64,000 nucleotides of DNA from a phage: sequence record PQ724393.1. The stretch is one strand, 5' to 3'. Of this stretch, positions 1,862 to 47,712 are shown one piece after another. Numbering within the stretch: the first letter of the stretch is position 1; each line of letters starts with the position of its first letter. The position numbers were made by a program, and so were the translations under genes. Under the pieces are notes generated by a model, which was given only the letters and a program-made list of their open reading frames with translations, searched no databases and was not told the origin of the DNA.

Positions 1862-2099
1862 CCTTGATGCATGATTCAGCCATATGAATTAATGTTTCTG
1901 GAGTATCATCTACCATTACATTAAAGCTAAATTCCACAGCCCAATCAGTGGCAACATAAACTTTAATAAGCTCGTTGGTATCACGAGTGCTCACGGCTTC
2001 AAACCAGAACTTAATAATACTCGTTTGTCCATCGTCATCAATAACTGTGCAGTCATGCTCCAGTTCAAGTCCTGATTTTTTGAATTCATCTAAAGTCAT
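1836..2099 (-). CDS. Small hypothetical protein (87 aa)
   Basis: ORF with ATG start overlapping gene 47 stop; tight T4-style packing. Confidence 0.5.
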   Translation of the reverse strand: MTLDEFKKSGLELEHDCTVIDDDGQTSIIKFWFEAVSTRDTNELIKVYVATDWAVEFSFNVMVDDTPETLIHMAESCIKDAYNDENV

Positions 2100-3118
2100 C
2101 GTGTAACCTCATTATAAAGTTGTGCAGCCATAGTCTTAAGGGCTTTAACATCGTCTTCAGTGTGGCCATCAGGAAGGGCATCGATATAGTCATACATCAT
2201 ATCCAAGAGGGACTTGACTTCATCCTCCTCTTCAGAATCATCGATATCAACACTATTATCTACCTTAGACACAATACGTAAAGAATGGACGACCTTTTCA
2301 AGCTCTGATTCGAACTTAGTAAGGCCGTCATCAATTTTATCGACTATAACACGAACTGCGATATTTGTAAAATCTTTGTAATCGATAGTCGCGTTAGGAT
2401 AATGAATCTTACGATGCCAACAGGTTTCATTAATGATGAAATCCATTTTATGAGTTTCGGTATCGAAAATCCAGAAACCACGAGGGTCGTTCTCATCACC
2501 TGCAGTCAGGGTCCATGGAGTACCAATGTACTTAACGTTTGCTGCATCAGAAATAGTGTGGAAGTGGCCTGACCAAACTTGCTTATACTTTTTAAGGAAA
2601 TCAGGTTCTAAACCATGGGATTTCATTCCTTTATAGAAATAGAAACCATTTAATTCCCAATGCCCAATACAGAAATCTGCTGTGGTATTTTTGATATGGT
2701 CCATGATATCGGTCGTGTTTTCTTCACACATCCATGGAATCAAATCAATTTCGGTGCCATCAAAGTTAACCGTAGTAGGTTTTTCAATAACCTTGATATG
2801 GTCATATTTACCCAGAACTTCAGAAGCAGCATTAGGAGTCAAGGTATTTTTGTAGTGCATATCATGATTACCAACAACGGTATACATGGTAATGCCATTA
2901 GCTTTAAGCAAATCAGAGATTTCGCGAGCGAATTCCATGCACTTGTGAGTAATTGCTTTACGAACATCAAAGATATCACCGTATTGAATCCATACAGTAA
3001 TGCCATTTGCTTTAGAATAATCAATAGCGTCTTGGATACCTTGACGTTGGATATTTTGTACCCACACATCATCAGCCTTAACTCCAAGGTGCCAGTCACC
3101 TGTGTTTAATATTTTCAT
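2096..3118 (-). CDS. 47: Recombination endonuclease subunit gp47 (Mre11-like phosphoesterase)
   Basis: MKILNTGDWHLGVK..., motifs GDWH, GDIFD, GNHD, GHFH typical of Mre11/SbcD; start set to ATG at 3116-3118 (the ORF-track start at 3145 is TTG). Confidence 0.9.
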   Translation of the reverse strand: MKILNTGDWHLGVKADDVWVQNIQRQGIQDAIDYSKANGITVWIQYGDIFDVRKAITHKCMEFAREISDLLKANGITMYTVVGNHDMHYKNTLTPNAASEVLGKYDHIKVIEKPTTVNFDGTEIDLIPWMCEENTTDIMDHIKNTTADFCIGHWELNGFYFYKGMKSHGLEPDFLKKYKQVWSGHFHTISDAANVKYIGTPWTLTAGDENDPRGFWIFDTETHKMDFIINETCWHRKIHYPNATIDYKDFTNIAVRVIVDKIDDGLTKFESELEKVVHSLRIVSKVDNSVDIDDSEEEDEVKSLLDMMYDYIDALPDGHTEDDVKALKTMAAQLYNEVTR

Positions 3119-3301
3119 AAGCCAAGCACCGTTATCGAAATACAAAATAAAATTATTGAAATGAACCCGTCAGAAGTGGAAAAGAATCCTATCCAACAAG
3201 CTCTTGTGAATGTGTAGAATGCCATGAATAACACGACATATCCTAAAAATAATTCCATATGTTCTCCTCAGTTGGTTCATTTTATCATCCCGAATATAAA
3301 G

Positions 3302-3326
3302 CAAAAAAGGAAGCCCTAGGCTTCCT
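3302..3326 (-). terminator. Rho-independent terminator (minus strand)
   Basis: Perfect inverted repeat GGAAGCC-CTA-GGCTTCC at 3309-3325 followed on the minus strand by a U6 run (plus-strand aaaaaa at 3303-3308). Confidence 0.6.
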
Positions 3327-3489
3327 TTCCAATTAATACGCCATACAGAGGTTCGTGATTAGACCTGAACTTGATAGGCTTATAGGTAATAGTACCTTCA
3401 TTTTCTGCTTTAATACGAGCGGCTTCAAATTGAAGTATCATCTCATTTTTGTCAGATTTAATCTTATCAAAATCCATCGAATTCGTCAT
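3316..3489 (-). CDS. Hypothetical small protein (57 aa)
   Basis: ATG at 3487-3489 preceded by AAGAGG 9 nt upstream; MTNSMDFDKIKSDKNEM...; stop lies inside the terminator stem; below the ORF-track length cutoff. Confidence 0.35.
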   Translation of the reverse strand: MTNSMDFDKIKSDKNEMILQFEAARIKAENEGTITYKPIKFRSNHEPLYGVLIGKEA

Positions 3490-3547
3490 TCATATAACCT
3501 CTTAAACTTTTTCGTATTCGTCATTCATTAGCCTGCAGTCCATGTTA

Positions 3548-3748
3548 TCATCTCTGCCACCACTTCTTAAGTTGATGAGAATCTACCCAAACCTTGGCTA
3601 CGGGCTCAATCTGAAAAATACCATCAGAATATCGGCCCATCATTTTGTATTCGGTTTCGGACTGCTTAATACAGATATTACCGTATGAGCGAAGTCTAAA
3701 GGCGGCTCCAATAAGAAGCCGTTTAAAGGGTTTATTTACCAGAGCCAT
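3548..3748 (-). CDS. Hypothetical protein (66 aa)
   Basis: ORF only; weak. Confidence 0.3.
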   Translation of the reverse strand: MALVNKPFKRLLIGAAFRLRSYGNICIKQSETEYKMMGRYSDGIFQIEPVAKVWVDSHQLKKWWQR

Positions 3749-4043
3749 TGACGATTTCCCAAATTTGTTTGCGGGTGGATTCCCACATCAATTGAACAAG
3801 TTCATCAGTAACAGGTTGACGGTAAATACCACGTAATTTAATTAAAGCGTACTTATATGCTTCAAAGTTGTTTTCAAGTACAGCGCCTTGGGCGTGGAGA
3901 TTTAAACGACGGATTTCACGAGCATTCTTCTTAAGAATCTTAGCCGCTTGAGAATTAGCTTCTTTAATATTGTGCTCTTCTAAACGTTGCTGGGCTTCTT
4001 CAATTTGCTCGTCAGTCAATTGAGAAATGTCATGGCTTTGCAT
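3732..4043 (-). CDS. Hypothetical protein (103 aa)
   Basis: ORF with ATG start; sits where T4 has 47.1/alpha-gt. Confidence 0.45.
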   Translation of the reverse strand: MQSHDISQLTDEQIEEAQQRLEEHNIKEANSQAAKILKKNAREIRRLNLHAQGAVLENNFEAYKYALIKLRGIYRQPVTDELVQLMWESTRKQIWEIVNGSGK

Positions 4044-4044
4044 A

Positions 4045-4311
4045 TTAATCCTTTGGAGTCAATTCGATAGTGAAGTAGAAATTAGCGTTCTCAACATGAT
4101 AACGATAATCTACGTTATTATCAGGAGAAGTGAATTCAATATTCCTGACGTTAAGTGGGTCAATATCAATAGGAAGGCCTTTAACATCCCGTAATATCAA
4201 TTTAATAAAATAAGGGAGTGCTTCGAAGTCTTCCATTCCATCTAAAAGTGGAGTGATATTAATCTGATGTTCCATATAAAAAATCCAGTTCGCCAACTTT
4301 AGGTTCGGCAC
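4045..4311 (-). CDS. Hypothetical protein (88 aa)
   Basis: ORF just downstream of gene 55; N-terminus overlaps the gene 55 3' end, so the true start may be internal. Confidence 0.4.
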
Positions 4312-4816
4312 TCTTATCAGACCCTGGTGCTTTAGTTAAAGAGGTTTCATACTGTGTCATTTTATCGTAGATATCTTGGATAAAGGTTTCATCTGCAATA
4401 CCTACCATATCGTCATCATTACTGTCATAGACATTATGGACGAAGTAGCTATATTTCTTTGCCATTTCTTTACGTTCTTTTTTGATACGCTGAACGAAGG
4501 CATTAAAACAAGCCATAGTGATATATGCATGTGGGTTGTCGTATTTTGTTTCGTCGAAGTTGTGAAGACCTTTAATCGAAGCTTCGATTCCATCAGCAAT
4601 CATTTCTTGCTTCCAGGATTGGGTATATCCGGAGAAGTTGAAACGCTTACTTAGTCCTTCAGCAATGAGCATAATAGCCAACCCTATAGTATCATTTTGT
4701 CTAATGATTTTATTAGGGTCGGTATTTTCTCTAAGCTCTGTTTTCCATTGGGTAATAGCTTTCAGAAGCTCCTTATTATTTACATAGTTATTTTTAGTCA
4801 GTTTAATTTCGGTCAT
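4259..4816 (-). CDS. 55: Late-transcription sigma factor gp55
   Basis: 185 aa, ...[11 protein letters not shown]...[49 protein letters not shown]... matches T4 gp55 closely; SD GAGGT upstream of ATG 4816. Confidence 0.9.
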
Positions 4817-4882
4817 TGTTACCTCAGATAACTCAAATCATAGGTCTATTATATCATAGTATTTGAAGACCCGTTTAAAGCA

Positions 4883-5146
4883 TCAACGGAGTAAGCAATA
4901 AGCCTGAAATACTGTTTCAAGAATTTTTTTGAACTCTTCGAAGGAAGGGGCTCCTTCAAATCCTTGGCTTTGAATATAAAGGCAGAATTGTTGGTAAAGG
5001 ACTAAATATTCGGATTGGTTGTATTTGGAAATATGAGACTTCCACACTTCAGAAGTCTCTCCGCAAATAAACTCAACATTCATATAGTTATCTATTAAGA
5101 AAAATCCTAAGCCTTCATAAGCTAATGTTATGGATACAGGCGTCAT
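4883..5146 (-). CDS. Hypothetical protein (87 aa)
   Basis: ORF in tightly packed minus-strand array. Confidence 0.45.
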   Translation of the reverse strand: MTPVSITLAYEGLGFFLIDNYMNVEFICGETSEVWKSHISKYNQSEYLVLYQQFCLYIQSQGFEGAPSFEEFKKILETVFQAYCLLR

Positions 5147-5409
5147 TGTAGGAATCTGGCTCCTTCTAGTGCATCATCAAGATTATCAAACTCATCAACG
5201 TAATCAATACCGCCGACCTCATCTTTAGCGTATAGCCAGTACTGTTTAAATTCATATTCAATAATAAAGTGGTCACCCTCAATCTGGAGAACCCCATCAC
5301 TATTAAATTGAACTGTATAACCGGTAAAGCGGACATCATTCAAGAGTTCTTCTTTCATAGCAATCATTTCCAAGTTTTTATCGTAATTAGAGAGTTTTAT
5401 TTTAATCAT
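5143..5409 (-). CDS. Hypothetical protein (88 aa)
   Basis: ORF; stop overlaps next start. Confidence 0.45.
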   Translation of the reverse strand: MIKIKLSNYDKNLEMIAMKEELLNDVRFTGYTVQFNSDGVLQIEGDHFIIEYEFKQYWLYAKDEVGGIDYVDEFDNLDDALEGARFLQ

Positions 5410-5650
5410 TTAAATAATCCTCAAATTCATTTAATGTCATGCCTTCGTCCCAAGCTATTTTAGGATCGGGCATTTTCATATAAGTGGTCTTAGAGCTTAT
5501 AGGAAATATCCTGAAATCGCGATGACTTCCACTTAACATATTAGCCGCTTTTATAATAGTTTCACTATTATTCATCATAGGGGTACGTTGGAAACCGGCT
5601 AAAGCTTTAAGGACTATTATAACCGATACATCTTCAGGCAAATTACTCAT
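5402..5650 (-). CDS. Hypothetical protein (82 aa)
   Basis: ORF; overlapping start/stop with neighbours. Confidence 0.45.
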   Translation of the reverse strand: MSNLPEDVSVIIVLKALAGFQRTPMMNNSETIIKAANMLSGSHRDFRIFPISSKTTYMKMPDPKIAWDEGMTLNEFEDYLND

Positions 5651-5976
5651 TTCGCAGCCTTAACAATTTTCAGGTCAACGAATTTTTTCTTACGTTGATT
5701 CTTCATACGACGGATGGTTTTGTCTGTGATTTCACCTGGCTGCCAAGCTTTAGATTCAACACCAAAGGCGGCCACATCAAACTCGTCGAGAATATATTGA
5801 ACCAGGATTTCACGAATACCGTTCTTACCAATTTTTTGGTCTTTAGAGTGCATGATTGGTAACAGTTCAGCAACCCATCGGTCAAGAACCTGAGGAGTTA
5901 CAAAGCCGGTTTTCATCAGTTCGTTAACTTTATCGAAAGCGAAAGAGTTCAGTACGTTTTTAATAGCTTGTGACAT
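5647..5976 (-). CDS. Hypothetical protein (109 aa), N-terminus MSQAI
   Basis: ATG preceded by GAGGAAATTATT; the 23-nt initiation region is identical to that of the gene at 13078. Confidence 0.5.
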   Translation of the reverse strand: MSQAIKNVLNSFAFDKVNELMKTGFVTPQVLDRWVAELLPIMHSKDQKIGKNGIREILVQYILDEFDVAAFGVESKAWQPGEITDKTIRRMKNQRKKKFVDLKIVKAAK

Positions 5977-6046
5977 AATAATTTCCTCAGTTTAAAATTT
6001 ATAATCCATGGGACCATTATACTCTGGTCCCAAGAGTTTGTAAACT
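5977..6046 (-). promoter_or_regulatory. Early-type promoter with hairpin around the -10
   Basis: Coding strand GTTTACA-N17-TATAAT; -10 sits in the loop of GGGACCA/TGGTCCC inverted repeat. Confidence 0.5.
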
Positions 6047-6245
6047 ATTTTTGTGCTAATGCACCTTTCCAACCTTCGTACATCGCCGCAGCCGATATTA
6101 ATATTGCTCCTGCGCATTTTGAATATTTGTTATTCCAAAACCAGTTTAGAAAAACTTCGTCATCAATACCTTGGGCTATCATATTTTCAAAGAATTGACG
6201 ACGAGCTTCAGCAACACGTTGTGATAATTTAGATTCAGGATTCAT
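6045..6245 (-). CDS. Hypothetical protein (66 aa)
   Basis: ORF 6045-6293 trimmed to ATG at 6243-6245 directly after the upstream stop. Confidence 0.4.
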   Translation of the reverse strand: MNPESKLSQRVAEARRQFFENMIAQGIDDEVFLNWFWNNKYSKCAGAILISAAAMYEGWKGALAQK

Positions 6246-6246
6246 T

Positions 6247-6378
6247 TTAAATTTTCCAGTTACCGTTTTCATCAATAAATTTAATCCAGTCATTTACTGA
6301 CCACGTGGTTGTATCGCCCTTTGGACTGACATTTAAAGTATACAACCCTTGCTTAAAAAGCATTCGTTTGATATTCAT
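6247..6378 (-). CDS. Hypothetical small protein (43 aa)
   Basis: ATG at 6376-6378 preceded by strong SD GAGGAAAAT; longer ORF-track version overlaps neighbour. Confidence 0.35.
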   Translation of the reverse strand: MNIKRMLFKQGLYTLNVSPKGDTTTWSVNDWIKFIDENGNWKI

Positions 6379-6385
6379 ATTTTCC

Positions 6386-6679
6386 TCAGCTGTAACGATA
6401 ACATTCGTTTGATTTACGTTTTGCAACTTGATGAGAAGTATTGTAATCAGGTTCATCGTCGTTGTAAACATCTTTTTTCAGCTTTCTCACTTCTTTACGA
6501 AGTTGGCGATTCATTTCATTCTTAACTTCAGAATCAACACCACGCATACGTTTCCACTTGTCAGAACGGAAGATATTTTCCTCAACCAGTTCCTGACTTA
6601 CACCGTCGGGCGCTTTACGGCGTCCGGAATAATAAAAATCTTTTACAGACAATTCTTTACGGCGAATAGTTTTACCCAT
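6386..6679 (-). CDS. Hypothetical basic protein (97 aa)
   Basis: ORF; Lys/Arg-rich. Confidence 0.45.
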   Translation of the reverse strand: MGKTIRRKELSVKDFYYSGRRKAPDGVSQELVEENIFRSDKWKRMRGVDSEVKNEMNRQLRKEVRKLKKDVYNDDEPDYNTSHQVAKRKSNECYRYS

Positions 6680-6681
6680 AG

Positions 6682-6936
6682 TTACCTCAGCAGTTTGTAT
6701 CCAATAAGATGTTTAATGTATTGGACATCTTTGACATCCAAATCTAACTTAATATCTTTCAGGCGTTCGGCCAGAGTAAGAAATGTTACGCGTTTCCAAT
6801 TCTTAACAGGGCAACAATAAGTTTTCGGCCCGTTAGCGATTTCAATATTTTTATCTGTGACGGTGATAAAAATCAAACGTTCATCATCGAGATTAAGGGT
6901 GACGACACTTTTGGTTGAATGTAGTTTCAGGCTCAT
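6682..6936 (-). CDS. Hypothetical protein (84 aa)
   Basis: ORF. Confidence 0.45.
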   Translation of the reverse strand: MSLKLHSTKSVVTLNLDDERLIFITVTDKNIEIANGPKTYCCPVKNWKRVTFLTLAERLKDIKLDLDVKDVQYIKHLIGYKLLR

Positions 6937-7115
6937 AATTTAATTTCCTTAGCTATCGAACAAAACAAACTACGGTCACATACCATCAATGGAATATTTC
7001 TATGGTCTAGTACACGATACCATACGTCTGAATCGCTAGCAGCAATTACACGAACCGCACGCCCATTTACCAAATAATACTGGTCGGCTTTAATTTCTTT
7101 ATCTTGGATAGTCAT
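6933..7115 (-). CDS. Hypothetical protein (60 aa)
   Basis: ORF immediately downstream of promoter cassette 7116-7174. Confidence 0.45.
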   Translation of the reverse strand: MTIQDKEIKADQYYLVNGRAVRVIAASDSDVWYRVLDHRNIPLMVCDRSLFCSIAKEIKL

Positions 7116-7174
7116 AATGTTCTCCTCATGTGTTGATAGGATAGACTATAACACGTGAGGAGAGGAAGTAAACA
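7116..7174 (-). promoter_or_regulatory. Early promoter / stem-loop cassette (diverged copy)
   Basis: Coding strand GTTTAC...CTCCTCACGTG...core...CACATGAGGAG(SD)-ATG; stem arms complementary. Confidence 0.45.
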
Positions 7175-7492
7175 CTAATCTTCAATTAAATCTCGGTCAT
7201 AACCAAGTTCAATCAAAAGTGATTTGAAGGTAGGAATATTTTCTATTTTCTTATTATCGACAAATATGACAGGATAGCGTATCGCCAAGCTCTTGAAGCC
7301 TGCACGTTTGGCCAATGATACTATAAGAGGCTTGTCATATACTGCGCCTGACGGCGTCTGGTTAATCACAGGATAGAAAGTATGTGGGATAGAAAGGGAA
7401 TTTAGGAGCGATAGAACAGCAATGCACCCTGGACAGCGCATGACTGTCTCAGGGATACCATAAATCTCAATTTTAGTTAACTTTTGGTCCAC
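7175..7492 (-). CDS. Thioredoxin/glutaredoxin-fold protein with CxxC (CPGC), possibly NrdH-like
   Basis: 105 aa, KIEIYGIP...CPGC near N-terminus, typical of small redoxins. Confidence 0.5.
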   Translation of the reverse strand: MDQKLTKIEIYGIPETVMRCPGCIAVLSLLNSLSIPHTFYPVINQTPSGAVYDKPLIVSLAKRAGFKSLAIRYPVIFVDNKKIENIPTFKSLLIELGYDRDLIED

Positions 7493-7769
7493 AGGAAATA
7501 ACTCCTTGGTAGTCCCAAGTTTTTAGAACTTCGTCTTCATTAGTTCCGTATGGGACGTAAATCTGGATAAGGAACCCAGTATCATCAAAAGAGAAGTAGA
7601 CGGTAGGTTTAATACCGTGAATCTCTGACAGGGCATAGATGTCCTTGAGGTCGTCTTCCTTACCTTTAAAGAATTCAGGGTTCAGGTCACAGTCATGGAA
7701 GTACCAATCATCACCAAACTTGTCCCATGTGGTCCAATTCAAAGCTACATATTCTTCAAAACGTTTCAT
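7473..7769 (-). CDS. Hypothetical protein (98 aa)
   Basis: ORF. Confidence 0.45.
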   Translation of the reverse strand: MKRFEEYVALNWTTWDKFGDDWYFHDCDLNPEFFKGKEDDLKDIYALSEIHGIKPTVYFSFDDTGFLIQIYVPYGTNEDEVLKTWDYQGVISCGPKVN

Positions 7770-7993
7770 TCTTTCACCTTCATCATTTTTGCTATAACAC
7801 TATGAACAGCCTGGATTCGTTTGTTGAACTCAGACCCTTCAAGACCTTTTTCAGTACTCAGCGCACCAATAATAACGAACAGCAATCCAAATGGGATGGC
7901 CAGGATTAAAAGGCACACGATAAACAGAACTAATGTAATATTGGCCAGGATATCAGAAACAGCATTACGAAATTTATTCATTAAAGAACCCAC
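7766..7993 (-). CDS. Hypothetical small membrane protein (75 aa)
   Basis: Hydrophobic stretch LVLFIVCLLILAIPFGLLFVIIGAL. Confidence 0.45.
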   Translation of the reverse strand: MGSLMNKFRNAVSDILANITLVLFIVCLLILAIPFGLLFVIIGALSTEKGLEGSEFNKRIQAVHSVIAKMMKVKE

Positions 7994-8102
7994 ATATTAG
8001 TTACAACAAATAACCATTGAGCAGGATACTCAACACCCATAATACGCACTGCATCGTTCAGAGATTCAGCTAGAGCATAGAATGTGTAGCCATAAAAATT
8101 AA

Positions 8103-8576
8103 TCATTTAAGCGATTTCCTCAGTTGTTTTTTAAATGAATCGACCATTTGTTTCTTTGTGTCAGATTCATTATAAGTCATTCCATGTGAAAGCATTTCAG
8201 CAATCATTTCTTCCTTACCTAATCTACTGAACTCTTTGGTTTTATCAGTTACAAAAGTAGGGTGAATAGGATTCTTGGAGCAATCATTCTCGAGGTACGC
8301 AACTAGATTTTTAAGACACTCGAGGTAGTCGTTGCCACGACCTTTAAGACCAGAGCGTACAAATTGGTGTCTGCTGCGTCCTTCCCAGGCGTTACAAAGA
8401 TTACAGAGCAACCCACGAACTCGTCCGGCTTGTAGCCCTTCTAAATCATGAGAGTGGTCTAAGTGGTTACTTTGAACATCCGTATTTAGATGTTGTTTAC
8501 ATACTAAACACAAGCCCTGTTGGTCTTTGTACATCTGTTCTTTTTGTTCTTTATAAAGCTTGCCAGTCAACAACAT
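8103..8576 (-). CDS. 49: Endonuclease VII (Holliday junction resolvase) gp49
   Basis: 157 aa MLLTGKLYKEQ..., Cys motifs CLVC and CNLCN, ...EFSRLGKEEMIAEML...KKQLRKSLK; near-colinear with T4 endo VII. Confidence 0.9.
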   Translation of the reverse strand: MLLTGKLYKEQKEQMYKDQQGLCLVCKQHLNTDVQSNHLDHSHDLEGLQAGRVRGLLCNLCNAWEGRSRHQFVRSGLKGRGNDYLECLKNLVAYLENDCSKNPIHPTFVTDKTKEFSRLGKEEMIAEMLSHGMTYNESDTKKQMVDSFKKQLRKSLK

Positions 8577-8613
8577 AATAAACCCTTACCATTATTAGAT
8601 AAGGGTATTTATT
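8577..8613 (-). promoter_or_regulatory. Late-promoter-like box plus hairpin upstream of gene 49
   Basis: Coding strand AATAAATA then CCCTTA-N11-TAAGGG hairpin containing the SD region; same layout as known for T4 gene 49. Confidence 0.4.
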
Positions 8614-8845
8614 ATTTTTCGAATGTACTATAAAACGAGCGATGTAATCGTTTAAATTGACGCATCATCTTTTTGGTAGGTCGAGTGGACAATCCTACAC
8701 ATGTAGCCATAAACTGGTCAACAGGACTTCCTTTGATAAGAAGTTTCCAGACCTTTGCGCCATTTAATTTTTCAGTATAAATCAGTTCAGTTTTCATAGT
8801 AAAACCCAAACTCCATATCGATGAAATCATTGTTTGAAGGTTCAT
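8612..8845 (-). CDS. Hypothetical protein (77 aa)
   Basis: ORF; weak SD, start uncertain. Confidence 0.35.
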   Translation of the reverse strand: MNLQTMISSIWSLGFTMKTELIYTEKLNGAKVWKLLIKGSPVDQFMATCVGLSTRPTKKMMRQFKRLHRSFYSTFEK

Positions 8846-8919
8846 TATACTCTATTTCGGAATCGTTGTAAACAGGTTCCTCTGGCTCGGTAGTTTTCCA
8901 CCGAGCGACATACCATGGC

Positions 8920-9228
8920 TTAACGGTCACACCACCAACTACTTACTTCAAAATCGGGTTCACCGTGTTCCCAGTACCAAGGGCCGATTGGATGCCAATC
9001 GCCATGTTCATCTTCTTCAAATTCTTCAGATTCTAGCCCAACATATTGCCATTGGACTTCATAAGCAGTGCCACCGATTACAACAGTATTCTCGCCATAT
9101 GGGTTAGCCACAACAAAATCAATACCTTCTGCTTTAGCCAACCAAACCATATATTCGTATAGTTTATATTCTAGGTCGTCTTCAGTACCATCGCCTAGAA
9201 AAATGGTTTGTTCATTTAATCCAATCAT
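8920..9228 (-). CDS. Hypothetical acidic Trp-rich protein (102 aa)
   Basis: ORF. Confidence 0.45.
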   Translation of the reverse strand: MIGLNEQTIFLGDGTEDDLEYKLYEYMVWLAKAEGIDFVVANPYGENTVVIGGTAYEVQWQYVGLESEEFEEDEHGDWHPIGPWYWEHGEPDFEVSSWWCDR

Positions 9229-9384
9229 TTAAAGTTCCAGAATGAAGCCCCAACCAGAAATAAAGGCCAACAAATCATAGACGTCAGCCACCAACAAAAG
9301 TCACCGGAATCATCTAATTTAGCTAGAGTCTTAGCATAACCAATACCGATGATAAGATACAAAACGACCAACGATAATTCAATC
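9229..9384 (-). CDS. Hypothetical small membrane peptide (51 aa)
   Basis: ATG overlaps nrdC stop (ATGA); MIELSLVVLYLIIGIGYAK... hydrophobic; below ORF-track cutoff. Confidence 0.35.
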
Positions 9385-9646
9385 ATTTGAAGTATGCTCG
9401 CAGTTGGTCAAAGCCGCCAATAGAAGTTCCGTCCGGAGCAAATACCTGAGGCATAGTCAAACCTACCTGAGATTCACGTCCAAGAGCGGCCAGGAGTTCA
9501 GCAATCTTCTCATCATCAAATACACCTTTTTCAGGCATAACATTGATGAATTCATACGGTTGTTTTTTAACGTCAAGTAGACGTTTTGCATTATCACAGA
9601 AAACACAACGATGAATAGATGAATCATAACCATAAACTTTAAACAT
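9383..9646 (-). CDS. nrdC: Thioredoxin (glutaredoxin-like) NrdC
   Basis: 87 aa MFKVYGYDSSIHRCVFCDNAKRLL..., CxxC motif; very similar to T4 NrdC. Confidence 0.85.
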   Translation of the reverse strand: MFKVYGYDSSIHRCVFCDNAKRLLDVKKQPYEFINVMPEKGVFDDEKIAELLAALGRESQVGLTMPQVFAPDGTSIGGFDQLRAYFK

Positions 9647-36062: not shown

Positions 36063-36137
36063 TGGTATCCCGCCCTGGGATCGAACCAGGACCGCAAACT
36101 TAGAAGGATCGTATGCTATCCATTACACCAGCGGGAC
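36063..36137 (-). tRNA. tRNA-Arg (anticodon UCU)
   Basis: Minus-strand GTCCCGC...CCTTCTAAG...GGTTCGATCCCAGG-GCGGGAT-A-CCA; anticodon loop CUUCUAA, T-loop, encoded CCA. Confidence 0.75.
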
Positions 36138-36142
36138 ATAGT

Positions 36143-36219
36143 TGGTGACCCGGACCAGATTTGAACTGGTAACCTTTCCCTTATGAGGGGACTGCTGCTA
36201 ACCATTGAGCTACAGGGCC
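36143..36219 (-). tRNA. tRNA with CAU anticodon (Ile2-type or Met)
   Basis: GGCCCTG...anticodon loop CUCAUAA...AGTTCAAATCTGGT-CCGGGTC-A-CCA; T4 encodes a tRNA-Ile at the corresponding position. Confidence 0.7.
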
Positions 36220-37596: not shown

Positions 37597-38543
<947 letters not shown>

Positions 38544-38551
<8 letters not shown>

Positions 38552-39305
38552 TTTTATTTCCTAATAATTTATCAATAGTAGTGTATAGTTCAGAAAGAGT
38601 GCCGTTATTTTCAACAACAACGTCACCAGGTAAAATTGGTAGACCCGCTTCAGTGATGTGCGAGTCTTGTACTTGACCGGTTTCAGCGCGAACTACATGA
38701 ATAATCGTAGCACCCATCGCTCTGAGCGAATCAATTTCGTGTGTTTGACGAACATCAGGTACGACATAGTATTTCGCATCAGAGTATATTTTATCAAAAT
38801 AGTCTAAAGCGAACAACTTAACCCAATACATCTTATCAAATTGGTTAACAATAATATCAGTCCCAAGGGTCTGCATGAGACGACGTACTGACCAATTGTT
38901 ATTTTTATTTATTACTTCAAACAGTTGGTCTTTTGTTTCTTCAGACAGATACTGGACCGGGGTAAGACCATAATGATATGCGGTACGAACATCCATTCCT
39001 GGAATAGGAAGGATATTATTCAGTTTGACAATAGCATTTTCAAAGATATCAATCACATCATATGGTTTTAAAGGAAGGATTTCTTCACGGTCGTAACCGA
39101 TACCTTCAAAACAGTTAAAATCGAGTTTAGGCATATAACTACGGTCGAATACAGGGTCATCAGAGATGTATTCATAGGCTTCAGCCAGATACTTTTTAAT
39201 AGGACCTGCTAGCTGAAATTTTACCGAATCCATATTTTCGATTACATAGTTAGCAACGGTATCCTTACCGCTACGTTTGATTCCTACAATTGATATTAGT
39301 TTCAT
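38544..39305 (-). CDS. 1: Deoxynucleoside monophosphate kinase gp1
   Basis: 253 aa; P-loop GIKRSGKDT; ...WSVRRLMQTLGTDIIVNQFDKMYWVKLFALDY... as in T4 gp1. Confidence 0.85.
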
Positions 39306-41297: not shown

Positions 41298-41900
41298 ATG
41301 CTCTTCTCATTTTTCGATCCTATCGATTACGAATCAAAAACAGTCAAGCCGGATTCAGGCTCATTAACAAATGCCGATGTACTGAGCGTGCCGATGACTG
41401 ATATATTTAGAAATTATAAAGAATATTTTGATAAAGTGGCTAAAAACTATACACTAAAGACTTATTATATCAACGGGGCCCCTCGTCCAGAAGAATTGGC
41501 TAATCAACTTTATGGTAATGTCCAATTATATTGGGTTTTATTGATGTGTAATAATATATACGACCCTTATTACGGCTGGATTACAGGCCAAGAAGTTGCA
41601 TATCAAGCGGCAATCCAAAGATATTCTACTGCAGGTGGCAATCAAGTTCTTTATCATGTTAATGAAAAGGGTGAGAAATTCTGGAATCTTGTTAATACTC
41701 CAGAAAACCCATATACTTGGTATGATAAAGGTGATACAGAAAAACGTTATCCTCAATATGAGGGCCCTTTGGCTGCAGTAGATATTTACGAGGATGCTAT
41801 TCGTAAAAATGAATATAAGCGCGAAATAAAGATTGTGGACCCTAATGATATTGAGTCCTTTATTTCTGCCCTTATTCGCGAAATGGAGAAAGCCCTCTAA
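41298..41900 (+). CDS. 53: Baseplate wedge protein gp53
   Basis: 200 aa; first late gene after divergent promoters; synteny with T4 53-5-6. Confidence 0.8.
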   Translation: MLFSFFDPIDYESKTVKPDSGSLTNADVLSVPMTDIFRNYKEYFDKVAKNYTLKTYYINGAPRPEELANQLYGNVQLYWVLLMCNNIYDPYYGWITGQEVAYQAAIQRYSTAGGNQVLYHVNEKGEKFWNLVNTPENPYTWYDKGDTEKRYPQYEGPLAAVDIYEDAIRKNEYKREIKIVDPNDIESFISALIREMEKAL

Positions 41901-43687
41901 TGATTAACATGTCTGATAATGTAAGTTGGTTCGTCGGTGTAGTTGAAGACCGAATGGACCCGCTCAAACAAGGCCGAGTACGTGTACGCGTATGGGGTAT
42001 GCATCCCTATGAAAAGGTACAAGGCCCTGTAAAAGGTCTTCGTACAGAAGATTTACCATGGATGTCGGTATTAATGCCTACATCTTCGGCCTCTGTTTCA
42101 GGTATACAAACCGCTATGACCGGTATGGTCCCAGGTACACAAGTTTATGGCCACTTTCTTGATAAGTGGAAATTAAACGGACTTGTCCTCGGTACATACG
42201 GTTCTGCATCAAAACAAAAAGCAAACCCTAATGAAGGTTTTAGCGACCCAACAGGCCAATATCCACTTTATTTAGGTAACGATGCCGCTGCACTAAACCG
42301 AGGTGGTGAAGTTGGATATGATGCCACTTCTAACGTAATCCAGGATTCTAACCTAGATTTAGGTATTAATCCTGACGGTTTAGATTTAAGTCAAGTCAAG
42401 CCTGACGATAATCCTAATTTCACAATAGAAAACATGCTTCACCGTGATGAAGGGCTTCGACTGAAGGTATATTGGGACACCGAAGGTTATCCTACTATCG
42501 GTATAGGTCACCTTATTACGCCACAACCTATTAGAGATATGAACCAAATAAACAAAATATTGTCTAAACAAATAGGTCGAGAAGTTAAAGGTAACCCTGG
42601 CGCAATATCAATGGATGAGGCTTCTAAATTATTCCAAGAAGACCTTAAAAAAGTCCAAAGCGATATAGGTCGACATAGTGTTGTGGGTCCGGTTTACAAT
42701 AAAGAAAACCGTTCAAGACAAATGGCTCTTGAAAACATGGCTTTCCAAATGGGTTTAGGTGGGCTTGCTAAATTCCGTGGTATGCTCAGTGCTATGCTAA
42801 TAGGCGATTATAAAAAGGCATTTGAGGAAGCTCGTAATTCAGTGTGGTTCAACCAAACTAAGGGCCGTGCATCAAGGGTATCAATGATTATCCTTACAGG
42901 TAACATGGAATCATACGGTATTATGGCCCCTAAAGAAAGGTCATTTAAAGGGCGTTCGTATAGAATGATTCAAACTTTTGCCGCACCTGCAAATTCAGAC
43001 CCAGCCGACCCATGGACCCCAGAAGATACAAGGATTCTGTTTAAAGAGCCAGAATCAAGTTACAAGGGCGAATATCCTTACGTGCAGACAATGCAAACTG
43101 AAGGTGGGCATATCCAAGAATTCGATAACACCCCAGGGCAAGAACGTTATCGTTTAATCCATCCTACAGGTAGTTATGAAGAAGTTGCTCCTGATGGCCG
43201 CAAAACTTCTAAGACGGTAGCCGATGGTTATTATATGACCCAAGGCGATTCTAATACTTATGTCGGCGGTAATAATAAAGTCAACATAGGCGGTGATGAA
43301 ACATATTATAATATGGCTAACGTTCGCCGTCAGACCGACGGAAACGAAAGCATTCATATTCGAGGGAATGAAACCAAAACTGTAGAAGGTAATGGAACTC
43401 TGCTTGTTAAAGGAAATGTTAAAATAGTTATTATGGGTACTGCTGATATAACTGTTGAACAAGAAGCATATATTACGGTTGAAAAAGATACAACAGTTAA
43501 TGTCAACCAGAATGCAGATATAAGCGTTAAACAAAAGGCCACAATAAATGCTCAAAATATGGATGTAAATGTCGAACAAGATTTAAATTTTGCAGCGACG
43601 AACATTAATTTAAACGCATCAAATACTGTGCATATGGATGGCGGTTCATTAGCTAAAGTATCTGGTGGCAACGTACAGGTCGGTTAA
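41900..43687 (+). CDS. 5: Baseplate hub / tail lysozyme gp5
   Basis: 595 aa; N-terminal ...WFVGVVEDRMDPLKQGRVRVRV...; central lysozyme domain ENMLHRDEGLRLKVYWDTEGYPTIGIGH; C-terminal beta-helix repeats. Confidence 0.9.
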   Translation: MINMSDNVSWFVGVVEDRMDPLKQGRVRVRVWGMHPYEKVQGPVKGLRTEDLPWMSVLMPTSSASVSGIQTAMTGMVPGTQVYGHFLDKWKLNGLVLGTYGSASKQKANPNEGFSDPTGQYPLYLGNDAAALNRGGEVGYDATSNVIQDSNLDLGINPDGLDLSQVKPDDNPNFTIENMLHRDEGLRLKVYWDTEGYPTIGIGHLITPQPIRDMNQINKILSKQIGREVKGNPGAISMDEASKLFQEDLKKVQSDIGRHSVVGPVYNKENRSRQMALENMAFQMGLGGLAKFRGMLSAMLIGDYKKAFEEARNSVWFNQTKGRASRVSMIILTGNMESYGIMAPKERSFKGRSYRMIQTFAAPANSDPADPWTPEDTRILFKEPESSYKGEYPYVQTMQTEGGHIQEFDNTPGQERYRLIHPTGSYEEVAPDGRKTSKTVADGYYMTQGDSNTYVGGNNKVNIGGDETYYNMANVRRQTDGNESIHIRGNETKTVEGNGTLLVKGNVKIVIMGTADITVEQEAYITVEKDTTVNVNQNADISVKQKATINAQNMDVNVEQDLNFAATNINLNASNTVHMDGGSLAKVSGGNVQVG

Positions 43688-43688
43688 T

Positions 43689-45752
43689 ATGAATTACTAC
43701 GATAAAGTTGATGAAGTGGTAGGGACTGTAACAAGTCCCTGTGATGACGCAGTAGGACCTGGTGAATATCGCCGGGTTAAATGGGAATTATATAACCCAA
43801 CAGGTGCTTTTATTCAACCCGGGAATGGCGTTGAATGGGATACCGAGATTATTCCACTAGCTACACATTTATACACACAAAATCCATTTGGTAATAAGTC
43901 CGAAACTTTTCCTGCACCTCCCCCGCCGGAAGATGGAACAAGTCAAGGTATCTGGTGTGCTAAACTCGGAATATTCTTTATTACGCAATTGGATTTAGAA
44001 AATTATGTAGAATCGATTGGTGCAACTCTTTTGCCCGGTAATGATTGGTACGGCGCTGATTTATCAAAATCTGTATTGTATAAAACATCTATTGAATATG
44101 ATATGTATCGCATCGAAAACTGTGGCGGTGTATGGACGTCACAAGGCCCCAGAATGGACCCCAGGACGATGATTGCAGTTACGGCTGATTATCATATGTA
44201 TGTCAACTTTAACGGCCTTGGTGACTCCCGCAGGGCTTATTTGAAGTACTATGAGACAAAACCTTGTACTTATGTTGGACTGGTATTAAATCTAGATGTT
44301 GATATGAGTATCCCAGGAACTCCGATTCCAGGACCAGTATCCATCGGGTCTTTACCACCAGAAATAACCGGGCGAGCCAGGGCAATAAGCTGTGTTCCTT
44401 TTACAGCGGAATTCCCTTACAACGGATTGACCAATGCGATTATGGCTTCATGGAATACATCTAGGAATTCATTCAAATTATATTGGGATATGCTCCCTGG
44501 ATGGCCATCATCTGGTGGAACCGATTGGGAAAAATTCTTCGATTCCGGTTATAGTAAGCTATCGGTCGCAATGGAAGAGCTAGGCAACTCAGCTGTTGCT
44601 ATGTGTCAATATGTTCAGCAAATGGCTTTTCTTGCATTTAAAGATGCCATATCACAGGTCTTGGATATTGTTGGTGGTGGGTGGGACTTACTTAAAAGCT
44701 TTTTACCCTCGATTACTATTATGGGCATGACTATTGACCTGGAAGACCTCTGCACTTCAGGTGATGGTGTACAGAAATTAAAAGAAGCATGGAAAAACTT
44801 TAATTTAGAAGAAACCATCCAATCGATTTATTCTGCCATTGGGTCGGCATACGATTATTCGGTTGAACGCGTCAAGATGTATTCGCGTGACCTTATTGAT
44901 GCAATTACAGACTTGTATGACTGGGCCTGGTCTCAATTGCTTATGGCTGGTGTTGCATTATCAAAACTGTGTGTAGACCTCGCTCAAATATGGAGTATGC
45001 CTCCTATAGTTCCGAACCCAGTTTGGAGCGTTATTACTGCGGTCAAGGAAATGATGAAGCAAGTTAAACCACTGGACATGATAATGAGCGGTAACTTTCC
45101 AGGATTCACGGCATCAGATGTTTATCAAATGGTTATGGAAAAGGTAGACCAGAAAATAGACGAAGCTTATGCAATGATTGAGGCTCTTAAAACCCAGGCA
45201 CTCAATCTGTGGAATGAGATTAAGCTCAAAAAGCAAGAAGTACAAAAACAAGCTATTGAATTTAAACAATATCTTTCAGGAATGTACGAAAAAGTTACAG
45301 ACGAGCTAACTGCTCAGAAGGAAGCCGCATTAGCACAAGCTGAAGCTGCACTTGAACTTTTAAAGAATAAATATAAACAGATTAAGAACTCTATTACCGA
45401 AAGTCAAACCTCCGTTTCTGATGTATTAGATATGGCTTTAGAAGAATTCAAAAAACTTCCTATTGTGGCTCAAATGGAAGAACTTCTCGGTATGCTCGGA
45501 GCTACTGTAGATGATATCATGGTTATATACGAGAACTCAGTAACTAAAGCAAAATCTTTATATCACGAATTTACTGATGGTTCCAGGTCAATGAAAGACT
45601 TGTGCAAATCAATGTATAACCAAATATCAACATTATCCTTAAGTAAGGTGGTACAATGGATTAATAAGATGCTGGGAATATTCGGTTTAACGATTGCATT
45701 TCCATCCCTTTCCATTTGCATACCTTGTTTAGAATCTCCTACTAGGAATTAA
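43689..45752 (+). CDS. Large uncharacterised protein (687 aa) between genes 5 and 6
   Basis: ATG 43689 one nt after gp5 stop, ends 2 nt before gene 6; N-terminal Pro/Gly-rich half and C-terminal coiled-coil half; no product recognised. Confidence 0.7.
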   Translation: MNYYDKVDEVVGTVTSPCDDAVGPGEYRRVKWELYNPTGAFIQPGNGVEWDTEIIPLATHLYTQNPFGNKSETFPAPPPPEDGTSQGIWCAKLGIFFITQLDLENYVESIGATLLPGNDWYGADLSKSVLYKTSIEYDMYRIENCGGVWTSQGPRMDPRTMIAVTADYHMYVNFNGLGDSRRAYLKYYETKPCTYVGLVLNLDVDMSIPGTPIPGPVSIGSLPPEITGRARAISCVPFTAEFPYNGLTNAIMASWNTSRNSFKLYWDMLPGWPSSGGTDWEKFFDSGYSKLSVAMEELGNSAVAMCQYVQQMAFLAFKDAISQVLDIVGGGWDLLKSFLPSITIMGMTIDLEDLCTSGDGVQKLKEAWKNFNLEETIQSIYSAIGSAYDYSVERVKMYSRDLIDAITDLYDWAWSQLLMAGVALSKLCVDLAQIWSMPPIVPNPVWSVITAVKEMMKQVKPLDMIMSGNFPGFTASDVYQMVMEKVDQKIDEAYAMIEALKTQALNLWNEIKLKKQEVQKQAIEFKQYLSGMYEKVTDELTAQKEAALAQAEAALELLKNKYKQIKNSITESQTSVSDVLDMALEEFKKLPIVAQMEELLGMLGATVDDIMVIYENSVTKAKSLYHEFTDGSRSMKDLCKSMYNQISTLSLSKVVQWINKMLGIFGLTIAFPSLSICIPCLESPTRN

Positions 45753-45753
45753 A

Positions 45754-47712
45754 ATGGCTACTCCTACGAATTACCAATTAACAAGAACCGTTAACGCTAT
45801 CCCAAAAGTATTTGTGGGAGCTACGTTTGAAGAAATTAAAAAGAATATTATAGACTGGCTTTCTAGCCAGGACGAATTTAAGGATTATGATTTCGTTGGT
45901 TCTCGAATGAATATCCTTATTGATATGCTTGCTTATAATACCCTTTATATGCAGCAATTTGCTAACACCGCTTTATACGAATCTTTTATAGGAACTGCAA
46001 ACCTTCGTTCTTCGGTTGTCCAGGCTGCACAAGATAATGGATATCTTCCTAGTTCTAAATCCGCGGCAAAAACTTCCGTAATGCTTACGTGTACTCAGGC
46101 TCTTAATGAAAAGAATATTCGTATTCCACGTGGTACTAAATTCTTGGCTTATGCTCGTGATACTTCAGCCGATCCATATGCCTTTGTGACCACTGATAAC
46201 GTTATTGCAGTGCGTGACGTTAATAACCAGTACTGGCCCATTGTTTCTCTGGCTCAAGGACGTATTATTCGTACCGAACTTAAATACGACCCTAAAACTC
46301 CTATTCTTATTCGTGACCCGGATATTGATAGACAAGAAGTTAAACTTTATGTTGATGGGGCAGAATGGATTAACTGGACCGATAAATCAATGGTTCACGC
46401 TGGTAGCACCTCGACAATTTACTATATGCGCGAAACCGTAGATGGTAATACCGAATTCTTCTTTGGTGAAGGTGAAGCCGAGAAATCTGTTGCAGGCGGA
46501 GTATTAGAAGCTAATTATATCGGCGGTCTAAAACCTGTTAAAGATTCTACCATTGTTATAGAATACCTTCGTACAGACGGTGAAGTTGCAAACGGTGCAG
46601 TTGACTTCAGTTATGCTGACTCCTTGGCTTATATTACTGTAGAAAAAATTACTGAAAACTATAACGACGACCCTGATTATGTCGGTGCTGATGGTGGTGG
46701 TGACCCTGAAGATATCGAACGTATTCGTGAATTGGCCGTAGTTAAGCGTGAAGCGCAGATGCGTGCTGTAACAGGAACCGACTATGATACATTCGTATCT
46801 GAACGTTTTGGCTCTATTGTACAAGCAGTACAAACCTTTACAGACCCAAATAAACCAGGTTATGCTTTTGTCACCATTAAACCTAAATCAGGGCTATATT
46901 TGACAGCCGTCCAACGTGAAGACATCCAAGACTACCTAAAAGAATTTAACTTAGCCCCTATTACCGCTTCTGTTATTTCTCCTGATTATTTGTTCTTAAA
47001 GCATAAAATTAAGGTATCGTATGCCTTGAATAAATTACAGGAATCTGAACAGTGGCTGTCGGCTCAAATTCTTTCTCAGATAGACCGTTATTATATTAAC
47101 GAAGTAGAAATTTTTAACCATGGATTCGCTAAGTCAAAAATGCTGACTTATATTGATAATGCTGACCATAGTATTTTAGGCTCCTCTGCTACCGTAACAA
47201 TGGTTCGTGAGGTATTGAACTTTTTCAAAACCCCTGAATCAGGTATTAAATACTATAATCAATACACTAACCGTTCTGTGGTTTCTAGTGAATTTGAGTT
47301 TGTCCCTACTATCGTTTCTGAAGACAGTCCTGCGTATAATGTCAGAATTGCCGCTACAGATAAAGACGAACGTGGTGATGGTAAAATGGTTATTGGTCCT
47401 TTCCGTCCAGGAGATGTAATTGAAAACCAATATATTAAACCATATACAGGAAATGACTTTGATAAAATGCCTGCTCCTGCAGACCAATCCGTTTATTACG
47501 TTATAGGTGAAATTGATTATTATTCAGATTTCATTTTCTGGGACATTGCGGCTATCGGTTTAACGTCCGATCGTTTTGAAGTTCAATCTATAGAACTTTA
47601 TGCGGGACCTGACCAAGACAACATCTTTACAAAAGACGGTTCGTTAATCGTATTTGAAGATGACCTCCGCCCTCAATACACGACCATTGAATTAGAACCT
47701 ATTACAATATAA
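45754..47712 (+). CDS. 6: Baseplate wedge protein gp6
   Basis: 652 aa MATPTNYQLTRTVNAIPKVFVGATFEEIK...; T4 gp6-like. Confidence 0.85.
   Translation: MATPTNYQLTRTVNAIPKVFVGATFEEIKKNIIDWLSSQDEFKDYDFVGSRMNILIDMLAYNTLYMQQFANTALYESFIGTANLRSSVVQAAQDNGYLPSSKSAAKTSVMLTCTQALNEKNIRIPRGTKFLAYARDTSADPYAFVTTDNVIAVRDVNNQYWPIVSLAQGRIIRTELKYDPKTPILIRDPDIDRQEVKLYVDGAEWINWTDKSMVHAGSTSTIYYMRETVDGNTEFFFGEGEAEKSVAGGVLEANYIGGLKPVKDSTIVIEYLRTDGEVANGAVDFSYADSLAYITVEKITENYNDDPDYVGADGGGDPEDIERIRELAVVKREAQMRAVTGTDYDTFVSERFGSIVQAVQTFTDPNKPGYAFVTIKPKSGLYLTAVQREDIQDYLKEFNLAPITASVISPDYLFLKHKIKVSYALNKLQESEQWLSAQILSQIDRYYINEVEIFNHGFAKSKMLTYIDNADHSILGSSATVTMVREVLNFFKTPESGIKYYNQYTNRSVVSSEFEFVPTIVSEDSPAYNVRIAATDKDERGDGKMVIGPFRPGDVIENQYIKPYTGNDFDKMPAPADQSVYYVIGEIDYYSDFIFWDIAAIGLTSDRFEVQSIELYAGPDQDNIFTKDGSLIVFEDDLRPQYTTIELEPITI

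Follow-up and report, generated by a model that had tools for sequence, protein, structure and literature searches.

Phage T4 carries genes for alpha-glucosyltransferase (a-gt) and for the class III (anaerobic) ribonucleotide reductase (nrdD for the glycyl-radical large subunit and nrdG for the radical-SAM activase) between the recombination gene 47 and the endonuclease VII gene 49, and here we describe the corresponding 47-55-49 block of sequence record PQ724393.1, a 64-kb stretch of phage DNA (the window) in which these genes are missing. The order in the T4 record is 47, 47.1, a-gt, mobB, a-gt.2 to a-gt.5, 55, 55.1 to 55.6, nrdH, 55.8, nrdG, mobC, nrdD with its I-TevII intron, and 49, and it agrees with the T4 map used in a preliminary description of this DNA, which placed a-gt between 47 and 55 and nrdH, nrdG and nrdD between 55 and 49. 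That description also held that the two intervals of the window, 47-55 (3119-4258) and 55-49 (4817-8102), contain only small open reading frames (ORFs), and this is what we find, as all of them encode products of 41-109 amino acids (aa) on the minus strand and each matches a T4-type small-gene family in Pfam or PHROGs (Table 1). The small genes 47.1, a-gt.2 to a-gt.5, 55.1 to 55.6, nrdH and 55.8 and the anchor genes 47, 55, and 49 are common to T4 and the window, whereas a-gt, mobB, nrdG, mobC and the intron-containing nrdD are found in this block only in T4. The small early/middle genes of the block form a minus-strand run of the usual T4 type, from which two accessory cassettes of T4 are missing.

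From its nucleotide identity and gene order we assign the window to the genome of a Dhakavirus, a genus of JS98-type T4-like coliphages within the Tevenvirinae. It is 95.4% identical to Escherichia phage fDHCT2 at positions 2000-9000 and 97.1% at 9001-34000, and 90-93% identical to JS98, IME08, AnYang, WG01, QL01, MX01 and other Dhakavirus records (megablast), with query coverage in the Dhakavirus matches of 94-100% for the 7-kb query and 86-94% for the 25-kb query. The 90-97% identity extends collinearly across 32 kb of the window, compared to a genus threshold of roughly at least 70% nucleotide identity over the genome, the comparison being made on 64 kb. The gene order from 46 to 17 is that of JS98, IME08, and fDHCT2, the first 41 kb or so of the window have genes on the minus strand only, and the protein look-up with the window gp46.2 matched other Dhakaviruses only (93-96% identity); at the same time, the identity of the window to deposited genomes is no higher than 90-97%, and neither an exact-protein look-up of gp47 nor an exact 63-mer scan of IMG/VR gave a match. 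The complete genome would be about 170 kb, of which roughly 106 kb lies outside the window, and the complete JS98 and fDHCT2 genomes serve as stand-ins for that part.

Table 1. Features of the window discussed in the text; the last six rows give homologues of RB69 modification genes in the relatives JS98 and fDHCT2 (E, expectation value; percentages are identities).
Feature	Position	Strand	Evidence
Gene 47 (SbcD/Mre11-like recombination nuclease subunit)	2096-3118	-	71% to T4 gp47, 341 aa, E 2e-162; same length as JS98 gp47
47.1-like small membrane protein, 47 aa	3115-3258	-	phrog_6693, E 2e-29; JS98 47.1 at same place
57-bp intergenic spacer at T4 a-gt and mobB position	3259-3315		ORF coordinates vs. 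T4 map
a-gt.2 homologue, 57 aa	3316-3489	-	Pfam DUF5486, E 2e-19; JS98 annotation a-gt.2
a-gt.3 homologue, 66 aa	3548-3748	-	phrog_1648, E 6e-29; JS98 annotation a-gt.3
a-gt.4 homologue, 103 aa	3732-4043	-	Pfam DUF2654, E 4e-23
a-gt.5 homologue, 76 aa from internal ATG (ORF to 4311)	4045-4275	-	Pfam DUF5491, E 3e-14, residues 17-81 of 88-aa ORF; fDHCT2 homologue 76 aa
Gene 55 (late-transcription sigma factor)	4259-4816	-	79% to T4 gp55, E 2e-96
RB69 ORF072c-like, 87 aa	4883-5146	-	Pfam DUF7200, E 2e-31; JS98 note "RB69 orf072c-like"
55.1 homologue, 88 aa	5143-5409	-	Pfam DUF5495, E 3e-20
Extra 82-aa ORF between 55.1 and 55.2	5402-5650	-	phrog_5589, E 2e-22
55.2 homologue, 109 aa	5647-5976	-	Pfam DUF7570, E 3e-38
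55.3 homologue, 66 aa from internal ATG	6045-6245	-	Pfam DUF5490, E 6e-34, residues 17-78 of 82-aa ORF
55.4 homologue, 43 aa	6247-6378	-	Pfam DUF5484, E 9e-33, residues 32-74 of 74-aa ORF
55.5 homologue, 97 aa	6386-6679	-	Pfam DUF5499, E 1e-45
RB69 ORF079c-like, 84 aa	6682-6936	-	Pfam DUF7290, E 6e-43
55.6 homologue, 60 aa	6933-7115	-	phrog_2283, E 1e-31
nrdH orthologue (glutaredoxin/thioredoxin-like)	7175-7492	-	CPGC motif; tblastn with T4 NrdH; phrog_22
RB69 ORF082c-like, 98 aa	7473-7769	-	phrog_2749, E 5e-48; JS98 note
55.8 homologue, small membrane protein, about 71 aa (ORF to 7993)	7766-7981	-	phrog_1930, E 9e-31; 42% to T4 gp55.8, E 4e-12
41-codon ORF at T4/RB69 nrdG(-mobC)-nrdD position	7981-8106	-	phrog_3350, E 1e-22
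Gene 49 (endonuclease VII)	8103-8576	-	Pfam Endonuclease_7 and Endonuc-dimeris; 68% to T4 gp49
nrdC (phage thioredoxin/glutaredoxin; reductant for aerobic reductase)	9383-9646	-	Pfam Glutaredoxin, E 2e-7
mob-like HNH free-standing homing endonuclease, 267 aa	16369-17172	-	phrog_655, E 4e-57
tRNA genes, two (Arg-TCT, Met-CAT)	36063-36219	-	
57B homologue	37866-38321	-	Pfam anti-CBASS nuclease Acb1, E 8e-59
Gene 1 (deoxynucleoside monophosphate, dNMP, kinase)	38544-39305	-	Pfam DNMK, E 5e-90
695-aa ORF between gp5 (41900-43687) and gp6 (45754-47712)	43665-45752	+	phrog_5296
RB69 gp48 (5-hydroxy-dCMP synthase) homologue	uvsX-43, JS98/fDHCT2		79%
RB69 gp46:47 (arabinosyltransferase 1; one gene) homologue	uvsX-43, JS98/fDHCT2		64-70%
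RB69 gp45 homologue	uvsX-43, JS98/fDHCT2		38%
RB69 gp51 homologue	uvsX-43, JS98/fDHCT2		62%
RB69 gp52:53 (one gene) homologue	uvsX-43, JS98/fDHCT2		41-44%
RB69 gp56 dCTPase homologue	elsewhere in JS98/fDHCT2 genome		91-95%

At the position where T4 has about 2.1 kb of a-gt and mobB the window has only the short spacer between 47.1 and a-gt.2, which bears out the statement that a-gt is missing from its usual slot. The nrdG/nrdD slot is likewise reduced, to 124 bp (7982-8105) compared to about 2.4 kb in RB69, and the homology of the window DNA to that of RB69 breaks off where 55.8 starts and is found again exactly from the end of gene 49. The slot is filled by the 41-codon ORF, which is 100% identical in fDHCT2 and 68-76% identical in JS98 and Bp7. 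No remnants of nrdG or nrdD above chance-level short matches were found at 7982-8105 (blastn, word size 7), and local protein alignment of the 41-aa product with NrdD and NrdG gave nothing beyond such matches. The idea that the 41-codon ORF corresponds to an unannotated ORF in the 55.8-nrdG spacer of T4 or RB69 was rejected as there is no counterpart in either phage. This ORF family is conserved across Dhakavirus and Gaprivervirus; in JS98 it lies at 41398-41496 (L003), where it is present yet unannotated in the RefSeq record.

The arrangement is that of the whole genus as sampled. JS98, IME08, and fDHCT2 all have an empty a-gt slot, the same 41-codon ORF in the nrdG/nrdD slot, and retain nrdH, 55.8 and nrdC as in the window, and every one of the 30 Dhakavirus records listed shows the same gene order. 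Because the matches span 6.8-7.8 kb for a 7.0-kb query, none of these 30 relatives can contain the 2.4-kb nrdG/nrdD insert. That both gaps might be an artefact, the two cassettes having been deleted in a laboratory mutant or lost in a faulty assembly, is refuted by this conservation across independent genomes, since the 30 records come from independent isolates, the order recurs in four IMG/VR genomes and in metagenomic Logan contigs, and the junction holds a conserved small ORF with a PHROG family of its own; we give the artefact next to no credence. To speak of genes missing from their usual slots is, moreover, a T4-centered view, as the a-gt slot of RB69 (a Mosigvirus) is also empty and many T4-like lineages lack nrdG/nrdD beside gene 49. 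There is no a-gt between a-gt.2 and gene 47 in RB69 or between a-gt.2 and 47.1 in JS98, and RB69, which also lacks the beta-glucosyltransferase gene (b-gt), differs from the window in having kept nrdG and nrdD along with nrdH, 55.8, and 49.

The preliminary description considered that the missing functions are either lost or encoded elsewhere, and proposed to search the genome for them. Using the T4 and RB69 proteins as queries, tblastn gave no match to a-gt, b-gt, NrdD or NrdG at E ≤ 0.01 in the 64-kb window, and the same queries gave none at that threshold in the complete JS98 and fDHCT2 genomes, the annotations of which list none of the four. Pfam revealed no glycosyltransferase or ribonucleotide reductase domains in the 29 longest other window ORFs, a set that takes in every ORF of at least 150 aa except the three anchors and those of the gp6-gp17 structural block. 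For NrdD the negative result is meaningful and sensitivity is not at issue, because the same RB69 query detects 2,926 other phage records with identities down to 29%. Loss is favored by the absence of homologues from the two complete genomes. The window covers 64 kb of about 170 kb, and close relatives within Gaprivervirus differ by the gain or loss of the nrdG/nrdD cassette (see below), and so a-gt/b-gt and nrdD/nrdG could have been relocated into the roughly 106 kb that lies beyond it. Such relocation is, however, very unlikely, because neither fDHCT2, which is 95-97% identical to the window, nor JS98 has homologues anywhere. In addition, the interval between gene 43 and uvsX, the T4 location of b-gt, is taken by an arabinosylation cassette in JS98 and fDHCT2, the gene-43-proximal end of which is also seen in the metagenomic Dhakavirus contigs L013 and L014, and in other nrdD-bearing T4-like phages nrdD adjoins gene 49.

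Although nrdG and nrdD are absent, the claim that nrdH is also missing does not hold. The ORF at 7175-7492 is 61% identical to T4 NrdH over 103 aa (tblastn, E 4e-37) and 65% identical to RB69 NrdH, it has the CPGC motif and the thioredoxin domain of phrog_22 (E 2e-13), and it lies between 55.6 and 55.8 as does nrdH in T4, RB69, and JS98; there was no Pfam match at 0.01 and no match in the PDB sequence search. This is the "CxxC redoxin-like" protein of the preliminary description, which was right about the motif, and it is a retained nrdH orthologue. The retention of nrdH without nrdD and nrdG points to a NrdH that does not serve the anaerobic reductase exclusively. The window also encodes NrdC, and nrdC is annotated at the syntenic place in JS98 and fDHCT2. 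The class Ia genes nrdA and nrdB are annotated in JS98 outside of the region of the window, and the fDHCT2 proteins match Ribonuc_red_lgC (E 4e-133) and Ribonuc_red_sm (E 5e-38) in Pfam. Consistent with this, JS98, JS10, and IME08 stand in the published NrdA/NrdB trees and not in the NrdD tree (Dwivedi 2013, PMC3653736). We rejected a reading of that paper in which its "Enterobacteria cluster 1" with nrdGDBA covers JS98, since the cluster numbering differs between figures and cluster 1 of the NrdD tree consists of RB51, RB14, and RB32 (Dwivedi 2013, PMC3653736).

The presence of class Ia NrdA/NrdB in the relatives together with the absence of NrdD/NrdG supports the earlier suggestion that the supply of deoxyribonucleoside triphosphates differs from that of T4. 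In the scheme that we propose, the nrdG-nrdD cassette would have been cleanly excised or never fixed, with the 41-codon ORF in its place, and ribonucleotide reduction would be left to the oxygen-dependent class Ia NrdA/NrdB alone, with NrdC and NrdH serving this enzyme. In anoxic cells the deoxynucleotides of the phage would have to come from the NrdD/NrdG already made by the host and from the salvage of broken-down host DNA, a dependence that gene content predicts.

The distribution of the cassette in other phages shows how readily it varies. In an IMG/VR scan with a gp49 alignment, which yielded 47 loci, nrdD/nrdG adjoin gene 49 in Tequatrovirus- and Mosigvirus-like loci and many others, and the 49-nrdH arrangement without the cassette is found in four Dhakavirus genomes, in Gaprivervirus VR26 and VR7, in Kosakonia/Enterobacter T4-like phages and in several more distant lineages. 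VR26 and VR7, which represent a sister genus, have the order 49, 41-codon ORF, 55.8 and nrdH without nrdG/nrdD, as in the window. In contrast, the VR25-like IMG/VR locus (L037) has nrdD and nrdG genes 97 and 95% identical to those of RB69 between 49 and 55.8. Because VR25 has RB69-like nrdD/nrdG and VR26 (L033, NC_028957) and VR7 do not while their flanks are about 95% identical, the comparison shows that the cassette is exchanged among T4-like coliphages. It is thus an accessory module, which recombination between these phages adds or removes. VR25 and VR26 are a natural near-isogenic pair that bears on the value of a phage-encoded anaerobic reductase.

What the relatives have in place of the T4 glucosyltransferases is an RB69-type cassette. 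In T4, b-gt and gene 42 lie between uvsX and gene 43, whereas JS98 and fDHCT2 have no b-gt match and carry in this interval, which is just outside (upstream of) the window, homologues of RB69 gp48, gp46:47, gp45, gp51 and gp52:53, with the gp56 dCTPase homologue elsewhere in the genome (Table 1). The search for deoxycytidine monophosphate (dCMP) hydroxymethylase that was also proposed earlier returned a single T4 gp42-like protein from JS98 and fDHCT2, and it is a thymidylate synthase homologue with 24-25% identity to T4 gp42 and 79% to RB69 gp48; it has the Pfam Thymidylat_synt domain, and the protein for which the synthase activity was shown is RB69 gp48. The gp52:53-type fusion of the relatives (557 aa) has NTP_transferase and APH (kinase) domains. 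RB69 gp3, gp49, gp50, and gp55 gave no match at E ≤ 0.01 in the window, JS98 or fDHCT2, and the 166-aa protein at the gp55 position of the relatives has no informative Pfam match. Contigs L013 and L014, which share the gp46.2 of the window, contain gene 43, imm and then the 166-aa ORF, and L014 continues with the NTP-transferase/kinase gene. Of the pathway to the modified-cytosine nucleotide, the window itself includes a single step, that of gene 1.

The literature on these phages points in the same direction. RB69 and JS98 were found to have homologues of genes 42 and 56 and no glucosyltransferase genes, and it was asked whether their DNA is modified in another way (Petrov 2010, PMC2993671). 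Arabinosylation was then found in RB69, and an IME08 homologue of ORF052/053 was noted (Thomas 2018, PMC6024577). More recently RB69 DNA was reported to contain arabinosylated 5-hydroxycytosine and gp48 was shown to be a 5-hydroxy-dCMP synthase, RB69 gp159, which is listed as a dNMP kinase, was co-expressed with this synthase in the in vivo assay, and the Dhakaviruses were named among the genera sharing the arabinosylation cluster (Lee 2026, PMC13326640). The same study describes Shewanella phage Thanatos, which has a single syntenic arabinosyltransferase and is mono-arabinosylated (PMC13326640).

We therefore agree with the preliminary description that the modification chemistry differs from that of T4, a conclusion supported by the RB69-type cassette of the relatives, with the chemistry itself being what we infer. 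This lineage would not make glucosyl-hydroxymethylcytosine. Rather, the gp56 dCTPase would provide dCMP, the gp48-type thymidylate synthase homologue would convert it to 5-hydroxy-dCMP, and the dNMP kinase gp1 would phosphorylate the latter, with a further phosphorylation preceding its incorporation by the DNA polymerase. A single arabinosyltransferase would then add arabinose to the DNA from uridine diphosphate (UDP)-arabinose made by the gp51 and gp52:53 homologues. As the RB69 isomerase is missing, arabinose-5-phosphate would come from the host, and E. coli has arabinose-5-phosphate isomerases of its own, KdsD and GutQ. The likeliest product by analogy with Thanatos would be one arabinose per cytosine, because only the first arabinosyltransferase is present.

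Hence, we conclude with a probability of roughly 85% that the phage is a Dhakavirus that lacks the T4 a-gt and nrdG/nrdD genes and that has an RB69-type modification and a class Ia reductase instead. Several points weigh against this conclusion. The absence of the genes from the whole genome is deduced from relatives that are 90-97% identical, glycosyltransferases that have diverged far can escape tblastn, and with nrdG/nrdD being polymorphic in Gaprivervirus an individual Dhakavirus could in principle carry the cassette elsewhere. On the chemical side, we found no chemical analysis of Dhakavirus DNA in the searchable literature, the putative arabinosyltransferase 1 of the relatives has no Pfam match, and without homologues of RB69 gp3 (the second arabinosyltransferase), gp50, and gp55 (the arabinose-5-phosphate isomerase) the pathway differs from that of RB69 and the sugar could differ as well. 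Some of these same points would fit DNA with no sugar at all, in which bare 5-hydroxymethylcytosine or 5-hydroxycytosine would be combined with anti-restriction proteins, an option raised by Petrov (2010, PMC2993671), as homologues of a-gt, b-gt, and RB69 gp3 are absent from the window, JS98 and fDHCT2, the RB69 isomerase is missing, and the searchable literature gave no analysis of the DNA itself. We nevertheless consider sugar-free DNA unlikely, given that the relatives retain the homologue of RB69 gp46:47, the proposed first arabinosyltransferase, together with the UDP-sugar-forming gp52:53 fusion and gp51, that KdsD and GutQ could supply the precursor, and that Thanatos is mono-arabinosylated with one such syntenic enzyme.

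Some further features of the window concern gene content outside of the two cassettes. The 82-aa ORF between 55.1 and 55.2 has a counterpart coding sequence in fDHCT2 (L002, 6400-6648) and none in the JS98 annotation, and is an example of small-gene insertions and deletions within the 47-55-49 block. Gene 49 of the window is a mosaic, in which residues 111-157 are identical to those of JS98 and residues 1-110 (chiefly about 8250-8576) diverge more than JS98, T4, and RB69 do among themselves; overall identity to T4 gp49 is lower than that of JS98 (68 vs. 88%), the best phage nucleotide identity to the divergent part in the collection is about 86%, and the catalytic His and Cys columns are conserved. 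In Dhakavirus Bp7 (locus L013; HQ829472.1 20450-40713) gene 49 is replaced by a 271-aa SegE-like GIY-YIG homing endonuclease, at about 3299-4500 of the locus, and tblastn detected no gp49 within the 20-kb locus. T4 gp49 is needed for resolving branched DNA before packaging; in Bp7 it may be encoded elsewhere or missing.

The 267-aa homing endonuclease, the N-terminus of which is 40% identical to T4 MobB and 36% to MobC, is placed between an nrdC.11-like nucleotidyltransferase gene and the next gene, and neither of the complete genomes, JS98 and fDHCT2, has it; JS98 and JS10 have been listed as having no homing endonucleases (Petrov 2010, PMC2993671). The window also has a 57B homologue with an Acb1 domain, and it has two tRNA genes compared to three (Arg, Asn, Met) in JS98. 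The 695-aa ORF takes the position that gp5.1 and gp5.4, a PAAR-like spike-tip protein, occupy in JS98; no homologue of either is present in the window or in the searched fDHCT2 region. The 695-aa protein is 99.9% identical in fDHCT2 (tblastn) and has no Pfam or PDB sequence match; it matched 216 phage records, mostly T4-like phages of Klebsiella, Enterobacter, and Citrobacter, and its gene follows gp5 wherever a listed annotation shows its neighbor. Its role could be that of an alternative spike tip or of a protein that is ejected.

The absence of the glucosyltransferases and of the anaerobic reductase is nothing unusual for the genus and has been published before, and the deduction made in the preliminary description, while right, restates what has been published on JS98-type phages. 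The lack of T4 glucosyltransferases in Dhakaviruses has been noted since 2010, and the pathway to arabinosyl-5-hydroxycytosine was predicted in 2026. The main value of the present analysis is in the correct annotation, with the gene content assigning the window to a well-sequenced genus. Phage-therapy cocktails make use of Dhakaviruses, the DNA modification of which would set their sensitivity to restriction, CRISPR, and type IV systems. As a tentative extension, to which we would give somewhat less than even odds, Dhakaviruses, this phage included, might make a reduced form of the RB69 modification by attaching a single arabinose to 5-hydroxycytosine by means of host arabinose-5-phosphate and might also depend in the gut on the anaerobic reductase of the host. 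The lack of a phage-encoded anaerobic reductase is predicted to be a factor that could limit their replication in the anoxic gut.

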